Part shown: piece by piece, positions 48,864 to 56,509 of the stretch | How the letters are laid out: every line of letters begins with the position of its first letter | Position numbering within the stretch: position 1 is the first letter of the stretch | From: Minisyncoccia bacterium | Lineage (GTDB): Bacteria > Patescibacteriota > Minisyncoccia > Phycocordibacterales > UBA9973 | Direction: 5' to 3' | NCBI GenBank assembly: GCA_038249055.1 | Contig: JBBRWS010000002.1 | Span: forward strand, 78,118-142,117 | Length of the DNA stretch: 64,000 nucleotides | Program-made: the position numbers and the translations under genes | Notes under the pieces: generated by a model | What the model was told of the DNA's origin: nothing | Seen by the model: only the letters and a program-made list of their open reading frames with translations | The model's database searches: none

Positions 48864-49286
48864 ATGAAAATTAAAATTAAAAAATTAAAAGAGGGGATAA
48901 AAATACCAAAATACGCTCATCCTGGAGACGTAGGAATGGATTTATATTCTATGGAAACAGTGATAATAAGGCCTGGCGAACAATATCGTTTTTACCATGG
49001 GTTTGCAGTAGAATTTCCTGTTGGTTATGCTGGTATTATTATGGATAAATCTAGTATTTCAAAAGCGGGGCTTACTAAAATGGGAGGAGTATTTGATGCT
49101 GGGTATCGAGGTGAATACAATACCCATCTTGTAAATCTTGGGAGTGAACCATATACTGTGGAAGAGGGAGATAAAGTTTCTCAACTTGTTATAGTTCCAA
49201 TAGTAATTGTAGAAATAGAAGAAGCGGATATATTAAGTGAATCCTCTCGTGGTATGGGAGCTTTTGGCTCAACTGGTAAAAATTAA
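48864..49286 (+). CDS. dut: dUTP diphosphatase
   Basis: …KIPKYAHPGDVGMDLYS… motif 1, GIIMDKSS, RGMGAFGSTG C-terminal motif 5. Confidence 0.85.
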   Translation: MKIKIKKLKEGIKIPKYAHPGDVGMDLYSMETVIIRPGEQYRFYHGFAVEFPVGYAGIIMDKSSISKAGLTKMGGVFDAGYRGEYNTHLVNLGSEPYTVEEGDKVSQLVIVPIVIVEIEEADILSESSRGMGAFGSTGKN

Positions 49287-49287
49287 T

Positions 49288-51000
49288 ATGAAAGAACAAA
49301 TAGAAAATTTAATAAAAGATGTTTTAAAAAATATTGGAATTATAGAAGATATTTCTTTTAATGTAGAACATCCAGATGATTTTAAAAATGGAGATTATTC
49401 TACAAATATAGCCATGGTTTGTGCTAAAAAGATTAGTAAAAACCCAAGAGAATTAGCTGAAAAAATTGTTGAAGAATTAAATAAAAATCTACCAAAAGAA
49501 ATTGGAAAAGTTGAAGTAGCAGGAGCTGGATTTATAAACTTTTACTTATCACGAGAATTTTTTACTGATAGTGTGAATAAAATTTTAGAAGAAAAAGAAA
49601 ATTGGGGTAAAAGTAATTTACTTAAAAGTAAGAAAATTATGGTTGAGTATACAGACCCAAATCCTTTTAAGCCATTTCACATAGGACATTTAATGACCAA
49701 TGCAATAGGGGAATCAATATCTCGTATTGTAGAATTTTCTGGAGCAGAAACTATTCGTGCAAATTATCAGGGTGACGTAGGTCCTCATGTGGCCAAGGCC
49801 GTTTATGGACTTATGAAGTTTGGTATGCCGGATAAAAATAAGACTGTATCTGAACAGGCTCAGTATATAGGTAAATGTTATTCCGATGGAAGTAATTTAT
49901 ATGATACAGACGAGAATGCAAAAAAAGAAATTGAAGTAATAAATAAAAAAATTTACGAAAGGAGCAATGAAGAAATAAATACTATTTATGATTATGGAAG
50001 AAAAATAACACTTGATGCTTTTGAGGAAATATACAAACTCCTGGGTACTAAATTTAAAGATGGTTGTTCTTTTTTTGAAAGTGTAATAGCTCCAATTGGT
50101 GAAAAAATAGTTCGTGAAAATATTGGTAAAGTTTTTGATGAATCTGATGGAGCGATTGTTTTTCATGGAGAAAATTATGATAAGAAACTTCATACTCGTG
50201 TCTTTATAAATTCTCAAGGATTGCCTACTTATGAGACAAAAGAAATTGGTTTAACTGTTACTAAGTTTGAAAAAGAAAATCCTGATATTTCCATAGTTGT
50301 AACTGCAACAGAGCAAGCTGAATATATGAAAGTAGTGCAGAAAGCTATCTCTTTAATACATCCTGATTTGGAATCAAGAATGAAGCATATTACTCATGGA
50401 ATGATGAAATTTGCTTCAGGAAAAATGTCTTCTAGAAAAGGGAACATAGTTACAGGAGAATCTCTATTACACGATTCAATGAATATTGTTTTTGAAAAGG
50501 TTAAAGACCGTGAGTTAACTGAAATTGAAAAAAAAGAAATTTCAGAAATTGTTGGAGTTTCTGCTTTGAAGTATTCTATACTTAAGTCATCACTCGGTAG
50601 TGATATCGTTTATGATTTTGAAAAATCTATTTCTTTTGATGGAGATTCAGGTCCTTATTTACAATACACAGCAGTACGAGCAAATTCTATAATTAAAAAA
50701 GCTGAAGAATTTAATACTGAAGATAAGAATGAAATACCAAATCAAATTTCGGACTTAGAAAAGTTAATTTATCAATTTCCAGAAGTTATTAAAAATTCCT
50801 ACATTCATCTTGAACCACATCACGTAGCTACTTATCTTACACATCTAGCAAGTAGCTTCAATTCTTTCTATGGAAATACTAAAATTTTAGTTGAAGATAA
50901 TAAATACGCTATTTATCATTTAAAACTTATAGAGTCTTTCTATCAGACCATGAAAAATGGGCTTTGGTTGCTTGGAATAGAAACTCCAGAAAAAATGTAA
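49288..51000 (+). CDS. argS: Arginine--tRNA ligase
   Basis: Class I HIGH-region (…TDPNPFKPFHIGHLMT…) and C-terminal DALR anticodon-binding domain. Start at MKEQIENL directly after the dut stop. Confidence 0.9.
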   Translation: MKEQIENLIKDVLKNIGIIEDISFNVEHPDDFKNGDYSTNIAMVCAKKISKNPRELAEKIVEELNKNLPKEIGKVEVAGAGFINFYLSREFFTDSVNKILEEKENWGKSNLLKSKKIMVEYTDPNPFKPFHIGHLMTNAIGESISRIVEFSGAETIRANYQGDVGPHVAKAVYGLMKFGMPDKNKTVSEQAQYIGKCYSDGSNLYDTDENAKKEIEVINKKIYERSNEEINTIYDYGRKITLDAFEEIYKLLGTKFKDGCSFFESVIAPIGEKIVRENIGKVFDESDGAIVFHGENYDKKLHTRVFINSQGLPTYETKEIGLTVTKFEKENPDISIVVTATEQAEYMKVVQKAISLIHPDLESRMKHITHGMMKFASGKMSSRKGNIVTGESLLHDSMNIVFEKVKDRELTEIEKKEISEIVGVSALKYSILKSSLGSDIVYDFEKSISFDGDSGPYLQYTAVRANSIIKKAEEFNTEDKNEIPNQISDLEKLIYQFPEVIKNSYIHLEPHHVATYLTHLASSFNSFYGNTKILVEDNKYAIYHLKLIESFYQTMKNGLWLLGIETPEKM

Positions 51001-51013
51001 AGAATAATATAGT

Positions 51014-51556
51014 ATGAATATTTTAATCAATGATAAAATAGTAAACTTTACTAAAGATGATTTTCCAATTTTAATTTCAGGAGCCAATAAAACTGGGTCT
51101 TCATTATTTAGTATTACGCTTGTGGCTAATTTATTTAAAAGTGGGAATAAAGTTTTATTTTTAACAGCATATCCTCCCGCTAAAATGGACTTTAGAAATC
51201 AATTGGGGAATTTATTAAATGAAAATGCAATAATTGTAGATTCTGGAGAGGAAAGTGTGTTTGTAAAAAAATTAGAGGAAATAAAAGATTTAGAAAATGT
51301 TATTGTTCTATTGAAAAATATGGAAAATTACAGCACTAAATTATTTGATAAATTAAAAGATAAAAAAATGGTAATTTTTTCTGGGGATATAGACGAGTGC
51401 GTTTTTAGGAATCAATTATCTAATATAGATTTTAAAACAAAAATATTTTTTTCTTATCCTAAAAAAATAAATATAGAAAATAAAATAGAGTTACCTAAAT
51501 ATAATGGGTTGATAATAAGTGAAAAATATAATGGAATAATAAAATTAGAAAATTAG
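51014..51556 (+). CDS. Hypothetical protein (degenerate P-loop-like GANKTGSS)
   Basis: 180-aa ORF downstream of argS. No firm assignment. Confidence 0.35.
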   Translation: MNILINDKIVNFTKDDFPILISGANKTGSSLFSITLVANLFKSGNKVLFLTAYPPAKMDFRNQLGNLLNENAIIVDSGEESVFVKKLEEIKDLENVIVLLKNMENYSTKLFDKLKDKKMVIFSGDIDECVFRNQLSNIDFKTKIFFSYPKKINIENKIELPKYNGLIISEKYNGIIKLEN

Positions 51557-51594
51557 ATTTCTTGCAATTTTAAGATTTTGTAGTATTCTTAGTA

Positions 51595-51780
51595 TATGCG
51601 TTGAAGAGGCCTCGTCCGAGTAATACGGGCAGACATCACCTCTGAGCTTATGGGAAGAAAGCCTTTATTGGTAAGTAGAACCCTCTAAATGAGAAGTAAA
51701 CGAGGTGGTACCACGTGTTTCAATAGAAACTCGTCCTTGTATAGCAATTATTGTAATTGTTGTACGAGGACGAGTTTTTT
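51595..51780 (+). promoter_or_regulatory. T-box riboswitch leader with Ile (AUC) specifier, upstream of ileS
   Basis: T-box-like GAGGTGGTACCACG (consensus AGGGTGGNACCGCG). ACATCA in the Stem-I 3' strand. AGTAATA distal loop. Intrinsic terminator ACTCGTCCTTGTA…TACGAGGACGAGTTTTTT at 51729-51780. Confidence 0.55.
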
Positions 51781-51781
51781 G

Positions 51782-51893
51782 TGTCCCGTACTAAATTTTG
51801 ATTCAATTTATATTACATATATTAAGTTTATCTTTTAAATAAATATTGTATTTATATTAAAAATATATATTGAAAATTTTAGTACGGGGATAG
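51782..51893 (+). repeat. IR-flanked AT-rich insert between the T-box terminator and ileS (arms GTCCCGTACTAAATTTT / AAAATTTTAGTACGGGGA)
   Basis: Inverted repeat of about 15 bp (one indel) spaced by 75 nt of low-complexity AT sequence. Terminal CCCGT resembles the CCCGTTAGA family termini. Confidence 0.4.
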
Positions 51894-52095
51894 TTTAAAT
51901 TAATAGTTTAGGTACTTCATTAAATATTAAAATTTTTCAAGTCCTCGGATGAGGGAGGACGAGGGGCCAGACCATTCAAAATTTTATATTTAATTACGTA
52001 CCGATTTAACCAGTAGTTGATTCAATTAATGATTCTGATGAATTGTTTATTGAATAAGATTTTTTATAAATAATTTGTTAAGTTTAATAAAATAT

Positions 52096-55000
52096 ATGGA
52101 CGAAAAAAACCCAAAAACTAATAGTGCACTTAGAGAAGAAGAAGTTTTAAAATTTTGGAAAGAGAATGAAATTTTTAAAAAGAGTTTAGAAAAAGATTCT
52201 CCTAAGGGTGAATATGTTTTTTATGAAGGGCCACCTACTGCAAATGGGAAACCAGGAATCCATCATTTAGAAGCTCGTGCTTTTAAGGATGCTATCCCTC
52301 GATATAAAACAATGAAAGGATATCATGTTGGAAGAAAAGGTGGGTGGGATACTCACGGTCTTCCTGTGGAACTTCAGGTAGAAAAAAAATTAGGTCTATC
52401 TTCAAAAAAAGCTATTGAAGAATATGGGGTTGCTAAATTTAATAAAGAATGTAAAGAAAGTGTGTGGGAATATACTGATCTATGGGAAAAATTTACCGAG
52501 AGAATTGGTTTTTGGGTTGATCAAGAAAATCCATACGTTACATATCATAATGATTACATTGAATCAGTTTGGAATGTTATTAAAGAAGCAAATAAACAAG
52601 ATTTACTTTATAAGGATTATAAAGTTGTACCTTGGTGTCCTAGGTGTGGAACAGGTCTTTCTTCTCACGAGCTTGCTCAAGGGTATGTTGATGTAAAAGA
52701 TTTATCAATATATGCAAAGTTTAAAATCAAAGGGAAAGAAAATACTTATATTCTTGCCTGGACCACAACTCCATGGACTCTTCCAGGAAATGTAGCCTTG
52801 GCTGTCGGTGAGAAAATAATGTATGTAAAAGTGAAAGCGGGGGAAGATTTTTATATTTTAGCTGAATCTCGATATCCATTTGTATCCCAGGAGTATCAAA
52901 TTGTTGAGAAAATAAAAGGTGAAGATTTAATTGGTTTGCAATATGAACCACTTTATCCTTATCTTGAAAATATAATTTCTGATTCTGAAAAACCTAAACT
53001 AGAAAAAGCTTATAAGATTTATAATGCAGATTTTGTGACAACTGAAGATGGAACAGGAGTGGTGCACACAGCTGTAATGTACGGGCAAGATGATTTTGAA
53101 TTAGGAAATAAAATTGGTTTACCAAAACATCATTTGGTAGGTCTTGATGGAAAGTTCTTAGCGGGGACGGGATTTTTAGAAGGACGATTTGTTAGAGACG
53201 AAGAAGTGGCTGTAGATATTATAAAGGATTTGGCTCATAGAGGTTTTCTCTTTAAAAAAGAAAAATATGAACACTCCTATCCACATTGTTGGCGTTGTAA
53301 AACAGCACTTATATATTATGCTCGGGATTCTTGGTACATAAGGATGTCTTCACTTAGGGATAAACTTATTAAAGAAAATGAAAATATAAATTGGGAACCT
53401 TCTCATATAAAAGAAGGACGTTTTGGTGAATGGTTAAAAGATATTAAAGATTGGGCAATTTCTAGAGAAAGATATTGGGGAACTCCACTTCCTGTTTGGT
53501 CCTGTTTGGAATGTAAAAAAATGGAGGTACTTGGAAGTATTGAAGATATTAAATCTAAAACCAAAAAATCTGGAAATAAATACTTTATAATGAGACACGG
53601 GGAAACTGAATGTAATATAAGAGGGGAAGTAAGTGATACTGTAAATAATGATGATAAATTAACTAAACTTGGCCGTGAGCAAGTTTTAAACTCTGTAAAA
53701 GGATTAAAGAAAAAAAATATTGACCTAATAATCATTTCTCCTTTTGTGAGAACAAAAGAAACTGTCGATATCTTAGCTTTAGAGATGGATTTTAACAAAG
53801 ACAATATTTTATTTGATGATAGATTGCATGAAATGTCTGTACCTATGTATGAAGGTAAAAAATGGGAAGATTATCATAATGATTATCCAAAATCAGTAGA
53901 AAACTTTTATAAAGCACCAGAAGGAAATGAATCATATGAAGATGTGAGAAGAAGGTCCATGAGTTTTTTATATGATATTGAAAAAAAATATTCAGGAAAA
54001 AATATTTTGATTATTACTCATGGAAGTCCTGTTTGGTTAATGTTTTCTGAGGTTAATGGTTTAAGTACTTCCGAATCTCTAGGGATAATAGCCAGAGATA
54101 ATAGTTATTGCTATTTAAATAATGGAGAATTTATAGAGCTTCCTTTTGTACCAGTACCTCATGATGAAAATTATAAGGTTGATTTACACAAACCATATAT
54201 TGATGAAATAAATCTAACTTGTGAATGTGGAGGAGAATTATCTAGAGCAAAGGAAGTAATGGATGTCTGGCTTGATTCTGGCTCAATGCCTTTTGCACAG
54301 AGTCATTATCCTTTTGAAAAAAAGGAAATACAATATCCCGCCGATTTTATAAGTGAAGCTGTCGATCAAACCCGTGGTTGGTTTTACACACTTCATGCAG
54401 TCGGAGTTATTATGGGAAGGGGAAATGCATATAAAAATGTAATTTGTCTTGGTTTATTACTTGATGCAAACGGGAAAAAGATGTCAAAATCTGTGGGAAA
54501 TGTTGTAGATCCATGGGCTATGATGGATAAATATGGAGTAGATACAATTAGACTTTGGATGTATTCAGTGAATCAACCAGGGGAGCCAAAAAACTTTGAT
54601 GAAAAAATTATTTCTGAATTACATAACAAAGTTTTTAATTTGCTGTATAACGTTTTAGCTTTTTACGAATTATATAGAGATGAAAAAGTAGAAAATAGAA
54701 AGGAAAAAGTAGAAAGTCAGAATGTTCTTGATCAATGGATTCTAACTCGTCTTGATGAACTTATAATCATAACTACAATAAATCTAGATGATTATAAGCT
54801 TCTTGAACCTGTTCGTGCCATTCGTGAATTTATAGACGATCTTTCTACTTGGTATTTACGACGCTCTCGTGAAAGAATAAAAGAAGGAGATGTTGAAGCA
54901 AAAATTACCTTATATAATGTTTTTAAAATCCTATCTAAATTAATGGCACCTTTTGCTCCATTTACGGCTGAAGATATTTGGCAAAAATTAAGAAATGAAG

Positions 55001-55548
55001 ACGATGAAGAGAGTGTACATTTATCAGGATGGCCTAAAAATGAAGAAAGTAAAAAAGAGGAAATAGAAAAAATTATTAAAGAAATGAGAGAGGTTAGAGA
55101 TGTCGTAACTCTTGGTTTGCAGGCAAGACAAAAAGTTGGTATTCCAGTACGACAACCACTTGGTGAATTACGAATTACAAACTATGATTTAAAAGAAGAA
55201 TATTTAGAAATTATTAAAGATGAGCTAAATGTTAAGATGGTAAAGTTTTTAGAAGATGTTGAACAAAAAATAGAATTGGATACATATATAACAGAGGATT
55301 TAAAAAATGAAGGTCAGTGTCGTGAACTATTAAGAAGTATTCAAGATATAAGAAAGAAAAATGGATTAAATCCAAATGATGTTATAATTCTTAGTATTGA
55401 TACGAATGTGTCTGGACAAGAATTAATAAATAAATTTAAAAAGGAAATAATGAAAGCAGTTAGTGCAAAAGAAATACAAATTGAAGAAAATAATGGAATA
55501 GAGATAAAAATTGATGAATTTGTATTTAAGGTTGTAGTAGAAAAATAA
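52096..55548 (+). CDS. ileS: Isoleucine--tRNA ligase with an inserted histidine-phosphatase (PGAM/SixA-like) domain
   Basis: HIGH-type motif PPTANGKPGIHHLE, editing-domain TTPWTLPGN, WAISRERYWGTPLPVW, KMSKS. Between WGTPLPVW and DVWLDSGS (about 60 aa in E. coli IleS) sits a roughly 200-aa insert carrying FIMRHGETECN and ILIITHGSPVWLM (approx. nt 53560-54150). Start at ATG 52096 (the track TTG at 52075). Confidence 0.9.
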   Translation: MDEKNPKTNSALREEEVLKFWKENEIFKKSLEKDSPKGEYVFYEGPPTANGKPGIHHLEARAFKDAIPRYKTMKGYHVGRKGGWDTHGLPVELQVEKKLGLSSKKAIEEYGVAKFNKECKESVWEYTDLWEKFTERIGFWVDQENPYVTYHNDYIESVWNVIKEANKQDLLYKDYKVVPWCPRCGTGLSSHELAQGYVDVKDLSIYAKFKIKGKENTYILAWTTTPWTLPGNVALAVGEKIMYVKVKAGEDFYILAESRYPFVSQEYQIVEKIKGEDLIGLQYEPLYPYLENIISDSEKPKLEKAYKIYNADFVTTEDGTGVVHTAVMYGQDDFELGNKIGLPKHHLVGLDGKFLAGTGFLEGRFVRDEEVAVDIIKDLAHRGFLFKKEKYEHSYPHCWRCKTALIYYARDSWYIRMSSLRDKLIKENENINWEPSHIKEGRFGEWLKDIKDWAISRERYWGTPLPVWSCLECKKMEVLGSIEDIKSKTKKSGNKYFIMRHGETECNIRGEVSDTVNNDDKLTKLGREQVLNSVKGLKKKNIDLIIISPFVRTKETVDILALEMDFNKDNILFDDRLHEMSVPMYEGKKWEDYHNDYPKSVENFYKAPEGNESYEDVRRRSMSFLYDIEKKYSGKNILIITHGSPVWLMFSEVNGLSTSESLGIIARDNSYCYLNNGEFIELPFVPVPHDENYKVDLHKPYIDEINLTCECGGELSRAKEVMDVWLDSGSMPFAQSHYPFEKKEIQYPADFISEAVDQTRGWFYTLHAVGVIMGRGNAYKNVICLGLLLDANGKKMSKSVGNVVDPWAMMDKYGVDTIRLWMYSVNQPGEPKNFDEKIISELHNKVFNLLYNVLAFYELYRDEKVENRKEKVESQNVLDQWILTRLDELIIITTINLDDYKLLEPVRAIREFIDDLSTWYLRRSRERIKEGDVEAKITLYNVFKILSKLMAPFAPFTAEDIWQKLRNEDDEESVHLSGWPKNEESKKEEIEKIIKEMREVRDVVTLGLQARQKVGIPVRQPLGELRITNYDLKEEYLEIIKDELNVKMVKFLEDVEQKIELDTYITEDLKNEGQCRELLRSIQDIRKKNGLNPNDVIILSIDTNVSGQELINKFKKEIMKAVSAKEIQIEENNGIEIKIDEFVFKVVVEK

Positions 55549-55579: not shown

Positions 55580-56509
55580 ATGAGCATAAAAGATAAATCA
55601 TATGGTGTAATTCTTGTGCTTCGTAGAAATAAGGACGAAGATAAATTTTTAATATTACACCAAACTGAAGGTCATTGGGGTTTCCCGAAGGGTCATCTTG
55701 AAGTGGGTGAAAACCCTTATGAAGCTGCTCTTCGTGAATTAAAAGAGGAAGCTGGTATCTCTGATATAAAATTAGCAGATTTGCCGAGTTTAATAGAAAA
55801 ATATTCTTTTGAGAAAAATGGGAACCATTATGATAAAGTAGTTGAATATTTTATTGCGTTTACTAAAAATGATGAAGTAACTATTCAAGAATCCGAAATT
55901 CAAAATTATAAATGGGCAACATATGAAGAGGCGCTTGATACTTTAACATTCAATGAAGCAAAGGAATTTCTAAAAATAGCAAAAAAATATATTGACTTGA
56001 AAGGTATTAGTCATGAGTTGGCAGTAATAAATTTAAAAGGTGTTTCGCCTGAGGACTCTGATAAATTACCCATAGTGTACAAAGCTAAGGCAGTTGTAAT
56101 AAATTCGGATAATAAAATTATTTTAATTAATGTTGTTTCAAAAAATAAAATAAGCATTCCAGGTGGTAAAATGGAATATGGAGAAAATATTTATGAAACA
56201 TTAGCTCGTGAGTGCAAAGAAGAAATAGGTTATAATATTTCAATTGCTACATCCTTGGGTTATGCAAAATTATATCGAAAAAAATATATTTCAGTAACGT
56301 TTGTTTTTATTGTTAATACTGTTGGAGAACAGTCAACTCTCTCTTTAATGGAAGATGAAATATTTGAGGGGCATGAAGTTGTGCATAAAGACATAGATGA
56401 GGCATTGGAAGAGATTAATAATTATATTATAGACAATCCAATATCTGCTTTGACTCAAATAGCATTAAAAGAAGCTAAAAAATATATTAATTATGGAACA
56501 ACAAAATAA
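55580..56509 (+). CDS. Tandem (double) NUDIX-domain hydrolase
   Basis: Two Nudix boxes: GFPKGHLEVGENPYEAALRELKEEAGI and PGGKMEYGENIYETLARECKEEIGY. Confidence 0.7.
   Translation: MSIKDKSYGVILVLRRNKDEDKFLILHQTEGHWGFPKGHLEVGENPYEAALRELKEEAGISDIKLADLPSLIEKYSFEKNGNHYDKVVEYFIAFTKNDEVTIQESEIQNYKWATYEEALDTLTFNEAKEFLKIAKKYIDLKGISHELAVINLKGVSPEDSDKLPIVYKAKAVVINSDNKIILINVVSKNKISIPGGKMEYGENIYETLARECKEEIGYNISIATSLGYAKLYRKKYISVTFVFIVNTVGEQSTLSLMEDEIFEGHEVVHKDIDEALEEINNYIIDNPISALTQIALKEAKKYINYGTTK

Follow-up and report, generated by a model that had tools for sequence, protein, structure and literature searches.

Why should an essential enzyme of translation carry a second, complete enzyme within its own chain? 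Aminoacyl-tRNA synthetases (aaRSs) are among the best-studied enzymes, and conserved extra catalytic domains in them have usually proved to serve translation through editing, tRNA binding or the use of charged tRNA. The question is raised here by ileS, the gene for isoleucyl-tRNA synthetase (IleRS), in a stretch of 64,000 nucleotides from a Minisyncoccia bacterium (assembly GCA_038249055.1, contig JBBRWS010000002.1, positions 78,118 to 142,117), which is referred to as the window. According to an original prediction, this synthetase contains an inserted histidine-phosphatase domain, which might be a moonlighting phosphatase, a degenerate structural insert or a regulatory module. The best joint explanation of the evidence below, to which we assign a probability of roughly 0.55, is that the gene encodes the housekeeping IleRS of the cell, of type 2 (IleRS2), with a nested phosphomonoesterase that resembles PhoE and PspA and is functionally tied to IleRS. 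Such an arrangement places a second complete enzyme inside an essential synthetase across a large bacterial branch with few cultured members.

The host enzyme was examined for its class and integrity. Its open reading frame (ORF) runs uninterrupted and in a single frame from 52075 to 55548 on the forward strand. The continuous ORF of 1157 amino acids (aa) that had been predicted is thereby confirmed; it begins at a TTG, which is an alternative start, and the residue numbering used here begins at the ATG at 52096 (1150 aa). The protein scored 878.2 bits against the NCBIfam ileS model TIGR00392 (cut-off 621.4). Pfam found tRNA-synt_1 (PF00133) in two halves flanking the insert, Anticodon_1 (PF08264) and, at aa 1059-1150, the type-2 C-terminal domain PF19302 (DUF5915). 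A full-length AlphaFold2 model, built with 36 relatives, had its best PDB match in the IleRS2 of Priestia megaterium (8c9d/8c8u, E 6e-93, 34% identity), with a TM score of 0.75-0.80 on the target, and IleRS1 ranked behind. All quoted motifs (WTTTPWT, WAISRERYWGTPLPVW, FIMRHGE, ITHGS, DVWLDSG and KMSKS) are present. The claimed set of IleS landmarks stands except for its HIGH-type signature, which is not canonical HIGH but GIHH. This G/AXHH form is known only from IleRS2 and has been tied to mupirocin hyper-resistance (Brkic et al. 2023, PMC10485003). Conservation was read from an alignment of the window IleRS with 36 full-length relatives, which are representatives of 50%-identity clusters (n = 37). 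The relatives have either GxHH or HxGH as their signature; in the editing motif, W222-T225, P226 and T228 never vary and W227 hardly does (90% or more). The GIHH-type motif and DUF5915 are common to the window protein and the IleRS2 of Deinococcus radiodurans, Streptomyces griseus and P. megaterium (8c8u). However, the solved IleRS2 structures have no domain at the insertion site described below, and their chains of 1028-1032 residues compare with 1150 in the window protein. The protein missed the exception-model cut-off of 1900 for the mupirocin-resistance enzymes MupA (778) and MupB (784), and no second ileS was seen within the 64-kb window.

The synthetase sequence is left at WGTPLPVW-S-C470-LE-C473-KKMEVLGSIEDIK and entered again at DLHKPYIDEINLT-C709-E-C711-GG, after which DVWLDSG follows. 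From C470 to C709 there are 239 residues in the window protein and about 44 in relatives that lack the insert, so the net insertion amounts to some 195-200 aa (aa ~485-692). The position first given for the insert, 53560-54150, was essentially right (Table 1). It was also placed correctly in a zinc knuckle, but in the wrong connective peptide (CP): the hairpin matches the definition of CP3, not CP2. CP3 holds a zinc motif in Thermus IleRS, and its topology varies among IleRS structures (PMC7191050). Over the insert the G+C content is 0.28-0.31, compared with 0.31-0.37 in the flanks, and the GC skew has no break. An intein or another self-splicing element was considered and rejected, as no Hint or intein domain occurs at the boundaries, which are CP3 sequence; the only Pfam matches in the inserted stretch were PF00300 and a sub-threshold DUF6904.

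The insert was identified by its profile match to His_Phos_1 (PF00300), which covers positions 2-166 of the 194 in the profile and is strong (aa 497-661, 104.4 bits against a gathering score of 21.7, E 8.1e-30). Careful alignment also showed the catalytic His and Arg residues to be present and conserved in the 37 sequences (Table 1), where E612, S548 and G526 are likewise invariant. With its full catalytic set kept, the phosphatase is apparently active. The full-length model has a mean predicted local distance difference test score (pLDDT) of 90.1 and a predicted TM score of 0.81. Means over blocks of ten residues lie between 76 and 96 over aa 491-660 and between 62 and 77 in the insert's C-terminal tail (aa 661-690), and a model of the domain alone reached a pLDDT of 88.6. 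The insert is thus predicted to form a separate globular domain with both of its ends meeting at the knuckle, and its predicted fold is the alpha/beta fold of histidine phosphatase branch 1.

The closest solved sequences are PspA (4ij5) and PhoE (1ebb/1h2e), at an identity of only 22-23%. The nearest characterised relatives are PspA, PhoE, GpgP, CobC and a riboflavin-pathway phosphatase, and the structural matches also include SixA, PGAM5 and Sts-2. The NCBIfam equivalog cut-offs for cofactor-dependent phosphoglycerate mutase (dPGM), GpmB, CobC, PspA and SixA were all missed by the window protein, and no known substrate class can be assigned to the insert. In the case of PspA the score was 52.5 against a cut-off of 350, so the substrate cannot be transferred from PspA. 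A SixA-like identity, which had been put forward, did not survive either, since the cut-off of TIGR00249 was missed and the compact SixA-like fold is absent. The insert is a short phosphomonoesterase-type member of branch 1 and is PhoE/PspA-like. PhoE of Geobacillus (Bacillus) stearothermophilus and the phosphoserine phosphatase PspA (iPSP1) of Hydrogenobacter thermophilus are also short branch-1 phosphomonoesterases, of broad or narrow specificity; these two are free-standing, whereas the phosphatase of the window is nested inside another enzyme.

The insert is not peculiar to one genome of the ultra-small Paceibacteria; it recurs in hundreds of related species. A collection with one genome per species was scanned, which gave 418 stretches encoding a relative of the insert, and the best 80 were examined as loci. 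In all 80 the insert lies inside a long IleS frame and at the same site, near aa 500, which is what the proposed survey of orthologues was to establish. These loci belong to metagenome-assembled genomes (MAGs) labelled Paceibacterota, Nomura-, Adler-, Wolfe-, Yonath- and Zambryskibacteria, RAAC4_OD1_1 (L011) and the like. Closest to the window is L005, a MAG labelled 'Candidatus Paceibacterota', whose IleRS core is 88% identical over its best-aligned 482 aa. In an exhaustive profile search 97 representatives had E <1e-30, dozens of them 1110-1275 aa long. For the window and its five closest genomes, the ratio of nonsynonymous to synonymous substitution rates (dN/dS) was 0.10-0.15 in the insert and 0.08-0.11 in the synthetase core; these values are rough because dS is near saturation (1.2-1.8). 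They place the insert under purifying selection about as strong as that on the core. The same architecture in 80 independently assembled genomes speaks against chimerism, and together with the invariant residues and the low dN/dS it excludes both chimerism and degeneration as far as sequence data allow. Of the three functional options that were first offered, the degenerate insert is thereby removed, and the moonlighting phosphatase and the regulatory module are narrowed but both stand.

The source names of the insert-bearing proteins read just 'isoleucyl-tRNA synthetase', and metabolic reconstructions that assign one function per protein may for this reason miss the phosphatase. In one ENA assembly (ERZ25039529), the insert-bearing ileS was called as three genes at each of two loci (L001, 6349-8602; L002, 2165-5223). 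These splits are probably frameshift errors, and they show how database entries can hide or fragment the architecture.

We take the alternation of this phosphatase between a domain and a neighbouring gene as the best argument that selection keeps it together with IleRS. The nearest free-standing relatives of the insert are proteins of 190 aa (P0004, P0005, P0007, P0010 and P0021), which reach about 200 bits against an insert-derived profile, share 36-39% identity with the insert and have identical catalytic residues. Thirty-four loci with a free-standing gene were assembled (L084-L088 and L092-L120), six of them via protein look-up and 28 via a metagenome scan. In the six look-up loci the phosphatase gene lies directly between argS and ileS, or adjoins contig-truncated ORFs in those positions; the spacers are 1-15 nucleotides (nt) long, and IleRS has 941-959 aa and a short CP3. 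The 28 metagenome loci encode proteins with 39-78% identity to the free-standing family. Three of these contigs end too early for adjacency to be judged. In the 25 that can be evaluated an insert-less ileS starts 10-60 nt downstream of the phosphatase in every case, apart from one spacer of about 370 nt, so that in 31 of 31 evaluable loci the gene directly precedes an ileS that has no insert. Gene and insert were never found together: no extra small phosphatase gene was seen in 81 insert loci (the window included) and no insert in the 34 free-standing ones. The order argS-...-ileS-...-recO is common to both sets. The free-standing loci differ in that the phosphatase is a separate polypeptide and the CP3 of IleRS has about 44 residues.

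How the two states arose was approached with neighbour-joining trees for the IleRS core and for the phosphatase, which are crude and lack an outgroup and support values. In the tree of the IleRS core both states are mixed within each of the three signature classes GVHH, HYGH and GIHH. In the phosphatase tree the sequences group by state, in disagreement with the core tree. Either of two histories would account for this: several changes from one state to the other, or the exchange of ileS beside a phosphatase gene that was kept. Two more distant free-standing homologues were also noted. One (L089, 6001-6537) directly follows a class II aaRS gene and precedes genes for acetate kinase and for a NrnA-like DHH/DHHA1 protein; the second (L091, 682-1281) lies between a HIT-family gene and phosphoribosyl pyrophosphate (PRPP) synthetase.

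A parallel was found in another synthetase. Metagenome fragments of valyl-tRNA synthetase (ValRS) carry a His_Phos domain between the equivalent Cys pairs, as WGHRIPVWYC-x-x-C ... C-x-x-C ... DTWFSS (P0102; P0203-P0229; locus L083, 1-1557). The ValRS P0102 has four copies of the phosphatase, three of them in tandem within the knuckle and the fourth upstream, and P0214 has it at another site, after DTWFSS. In the crude tree the ValRS inserts form clades apart from those of IleRS, which suggests that ValRS took up the domain independently. Composite forms also occur among the IleRSs. P0136 (1419 aa) has a second phosphatase that separates its catalytic domain from the anticodon-binding one, and RHA replaces RHG in the first of its two copies. 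P0122 (1066 aa) has a Y1 transposase domain of the IS200-like type at aa 340-461, which seems to lie inside the CP1 editing region, together with a phosphatase in CP3 and a GNAT domain after HFPFEN.

It had been stated that no IleS with an embedded phosphoglycerate-mutase-family domain was known. This was incorrect: a single sentence had already reported an SR1 IleRS whose frame is broken by two domains of phosphoglycerate-mutase type plus a Nudix domain (Kantor et al. 2013, mBio, PMC3812714). That sentence was the only literature found on histidine phosphatases embedded in synthetases, and no follow-up to it was found. The architecture of IleRS with a phosphatase is therefore not unprecedented, but it is uncharacterised. 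The alternation between gene and insert and the parallel in ValRS appear to be new. Both the SR1 and the window IleRS come from the candidate phyla radiation (CPR) and have a domain of this family (His_Phos_1) inside the frame. By its description, which gives no insertion sites, conservation or context, the SR1 enzyme has two phosphatase domains and an inserted Nudix, whereas the window enzyme has one phosphatase, in CP3. No PF00293 match was obtained inside the window IleRS, and Nudix is encoded there by a separate downstream gene. NF040702 ('isoleucine--tRNA ligase, N-acetyltransferase domain-containing') is a curated IleRS family with an extra enzyme domain, but this is GNAT and not a phosphatase; the window protein scored 329.6 against its cut-off of 1999, and Pfam found no GNAT domain in it. 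The mycobacterial proteins MutT1 (Nudix and an RHG domain) and Rv2228c (RNase H and an acid phosphatase) are fusions of another kind, joined end to end and not nested. The RHG domain of MutT1 is SixA-like and acts on phospho-histidine proteins, and in the comparison with proteins of the MutT1/Rv2228c type the scores were under the cut-offs (74.7 versus 326).

In PhoE and PspA a histidine accepts the phosphoryl group and a glutamate acts as the general acid. By analogy, IleRS would charge tRNA-Ile as usual, and His501 of the insert would take the phosphoryl group from a small phosphomonoester to give a phospho-His501 intermediate, with Glu579 as the general acid. The phosphatase activity would be needed in step with IleRS, and selection would therefore keep both within a single operon or a single polypeptide. 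In this genome the T-box-like leader upstream of ileS (Table 1) probably induces synthetase and phosphatase together when tRNA-Ile is uncharged. Our first guess for the substrate is AMP, because this is the only phosphomonoester that the synthetase reaction releases, and other nucleotide by-products come next; the guess is a tentative one that we would expect to fail sooner than succeed. The pairing nevertheless gives a testable handle on CPR physiology, namely which phosphate ester must go wherever IleRS or, in other lineages, ValRS is made.

Several points weigh against a functional tie. The coupling of the insert to IleRS is read from gene order and fusion only, and adjacency alone is weak evidence, because argS and recO, which have no evident functional tie to IleRS, are conserved just as well in these compact genomes. 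Of the IleRS subdomains CP3 varies most (PMC7191050), aaRSs are known to tolerate insertions, and the choice of site may reflect tolerance rather than function. A fixed geometry with respect to the active site is unlikely, since P0136, P0214 and P0102 carry the domain elsewhere or in four copies. The isoelectric point of the insert is 5.8 in the window and 5.2-10 across the inserts; as their charge is not consistently basic, there is no sign of an RNA-binding surface. A link between the downstream Nudix gene and the Nudix embedded in IleRS was also considered and rejected: a search of 5.8 billion proteins with the first domain of the Nudix protein gave only free-standing, single-domain Nudix proteins of about 140 aa.

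In the most serious alternative, the phosphatase is a passenger. An ordinary housekeeping enzyme, acting for example on phosphoserine or a sugar phosphate, would have been a chance neighbour of ileS and would have lodged in a permissive loop, where it is co-expressed without any link to aminoacylation. That the nearest characterised relatives are metabolic fits this well, as do the structural variability of CP3, the frequency of aaRSs as insertion hosts, the differing insertion sites among relatives and the equal synteny of the unrelated argS and recO. The distant free-standing homologues, which lie in different surroundings (between HIT and PRPP synthetase genes in L091; between a class II aaRS gene and acetate kinase in L089), point the same way. 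However, chance is hard to credit because the pairing recurs: it persists with ileS in two physical forms and spans IleRSs of three signature classes, ValRS seems to have taken up other His_Phos lineages independently at the same knuckle, and the SR1 IleRS has two such domains. A mere passenger is on balance unlikely, and the preferred reading remains a phosphatase that is tied to IleRS in function.

A bolder form of such a tie would make the phosphatase a cis-acting quality-control module of aminoacylation, of a new kind and common to IleRS and ValRS in the CPR, that makes the tRNA 3' end chargeable again by taking off a terminal phosphate which damage or a toxin has left, or else destroys a phosphorylated by-product specific to the synthetase. 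If this were true, the insert would be an accessory catalytic domain with a status comparable to that of the CP1 editing domain, and the gene adjoining ileS would be its trans-acting form. We regard this as quite unlikely.

Repair of the tRNA end taken by itself fares slightly worse. The domain would clear the CCA end of tRNA-Ile of a 3' or 2' phosphate, or of the last phosphate that stays behind once pyrophosphate has been removed, so that damaged or toxin-modified tRNA becomes chargeable. Class Ia editing synthetases shuttle the CCA end between sites, and both enzymes that carry the domain on their catalytic body, IleRS and ValRS, are editing synthetases. Other domains of nucleotide or RNA-end enzymes occur in CPR IleRSs (Nudix in SR1; GNAT in NF040702 and P0122), and T-box-like induction by uncharged tRNA would fit as well. 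However, a basic surface signature is missing, the domain is found at differing positions and in tandem, small molecules are the substrates of its closest relatives, and PADLOC gave no defence or toxin signature. Nor does such repair supply a reason why only some synthetases would need a phosphatase. It is accordingly rated as improbable.

A protein phosphatase or regulatory module, which would dephosphorylate IleRS itself or a signalling protein (on phospho-His, Ser or Thr) in the manner of SixA, PGAM5 or the C-terminal domain of MutT1, is more improbable still. Members of branch 1 can act on proteins, SixA, PGAM5 and Sts-2 are among the structural matches, and the C-terminal domain of MutT1 dephosphorylates sensor kinases (PMC12407098). 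Against this, a permanent tether would make regulatory phosphorylation of the carrier futile, and no kinase gene was seen among the scanned neighbours.

The insert might also be the dPGM of the cell, hidden in another gene, which would explain the 'missing' phosphoglycerate mutase (PGM) of some Parcubacteria. The best NCBIfam match within the phosphatase family is indeed the archaeal-type dPGM model, but its score is far below the cut-off (dPGM_arch NF038349, 78.1 versus 225), as is that of GpmB (NF002901, 39.1 versus 261), and the phosphoglycerate-mutase identity given in the original prediction falls on this ground. The domain has about 190 aa, and in the alignment its loop after the catalytic Glu is PhoE-like (RLREI.G.W/F.GK) and, as we take it, unlike the dPGM motifs. 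PGM has been reported missing from several shallow Parcubacteria clades, perhaps because its divergence hides it from detection (PMC7304191). However, RAAC4_OD1_1 carries the insert, and yet an Embden-Meyerhof-Parnas pathway through to pyruvate was reported for it (PMC3812714). A hidden glycolytic enzyme is thus very unlikely. Least credible, and close to negligible, is a degenerate structural spacer or an artefact of assembly or frameshift: the G+C content of the insert is slightly under that of its flanks and some entries of relatives are fragmented by frameshifts (L001, L002), but the catalytic residues are invariant, dN/dS is about 0.1, the frame is single and open, 80 independent assemblies and dozens of full-length proteins are alike, and the structure prediction is confident.

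Table 1. Coordinates of ileS, its inserted phosphatase domain and neighbouring features in the window (residue numbers refer to IleRS from the ATG).
Feature	Position (nt)	Strand	Basis
argS, conserved upstream neighbour	49237..51000	+	Pfam; synteny in 49/80 loci
180-aa ORF between argS and ileS	51014-51556	+	Position of the free-standing phosphatase in related lineages
T-box-like leader and intrinsic terminator upstream of ileS	51592..51785	+	RF00230 sub-threshold, motif, terminator stem
ileS, type-2 isoleucyl-tRNA synthetase with inserted phosphatase	52096..55548 (TTG 52075)	+	ORF, TIGR00392, Pfam, AlphaFold2
Class I signature GIHH (non-canonical G/AXHH), aa 54-57	52255..52266	+	Motif position
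WTTTPWT of the CP1 editing domain, aa 222-228	52759..52779	+	Motif position
WAISRERYWGTPLPVW (aa 453-468), then first Cys pair C470-x-x-C473; N-terminal boundary of the host hairpin	53452..53514	+	Motif position
Inserted histidine-phosphatase domain, aa 485-692	53548..54171	+	Pfam envelope aa 497-661, nt 53584-54078
R500-H501-G502, RHG motif (FIMRHGE) with predicted phospho-accepting His	53593..53601	+	R500 and H501 37/37; G502 34/37
R552, second phosphate-binding Arg (VRTKET)	53749..53751	+	37/37
E579, predicted general acid (RLHEM)	53830..53832	+	33 Glu and 4 Asp of 37
H642, second catalytic His (ITHGS)	54019..54021	+	37/37
Return to IleRS: DLHKPYIDE and second Cys pair C709-x-C711, CP3 knuckle	54181..54234	+	Motif position
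DVWLDSG (aa 723-729) to KMSKS (aa 795-799), second Rossmann half	54262..54492	+	Motif positions
Tandem two-Nudix protein, 32 nt after ileS	55580-56509	+	Pfam; MutT/RppH-like, under all equivalog cut-offs

The surroundings of ileS were examined for further signs of function. The gene downstream of ileS, which encodes the tandem Nudix protein, matches the PADLOC candidate family PDC-S07 (67.6 bits) and adjoins ileS in 11 of the 80 loci. A context of anti-phage defence or toxin immunity was considered and rejected, as this was the sole match and PADLOC was empty for IleRS, the free-standing phosphatase and most neighbours. The tandem Nudix, a HAD phosphatase and a serine hydrolase follow ileS, and since each occurs in only 9-12 of the 80 loci, these genes look like variable fillers before recO.

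Upstream, the ORF between argS and ileS matched nothing in Pfam, NCBIfam or PADLOC and does not resemble the phosphatase, and it was present in one of the 80 related loci. The idea that a remnant of a phosphatase gene persists between argS and ileS was also discarded, because a six-frame profile search of the whole window hit the insert only.

The leader contains the canonical T-box sequence AGGUGGUACCACG. Its match to RF00230 (51592-51741) reaches 38.7 bits, which is under the gathering score of 93, with an E value of 2e-7 and a short Stem I. It is overlapped by an intrinsic terminator, whose stem at 51729-51775 is followed by a run of T. An AUC specifier is possible near 51634, and the leader probably regulates ileS by sensing tRNA-Ile. 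Among 65 insert-bearing loci, 34 have the T-box core motif upstream of ileS, compared with none of the 34 free-standing loci. Between the terminator and the start of ileS lies a very A+T-rich spacer of about 300 nt on the forward strand (~51790-52095), for which Rfam gave no match. Within this spacer, at about 51943-51968, lies an isolated stretch rich in G+C, cctcggatgagggaggacgaggggcc.

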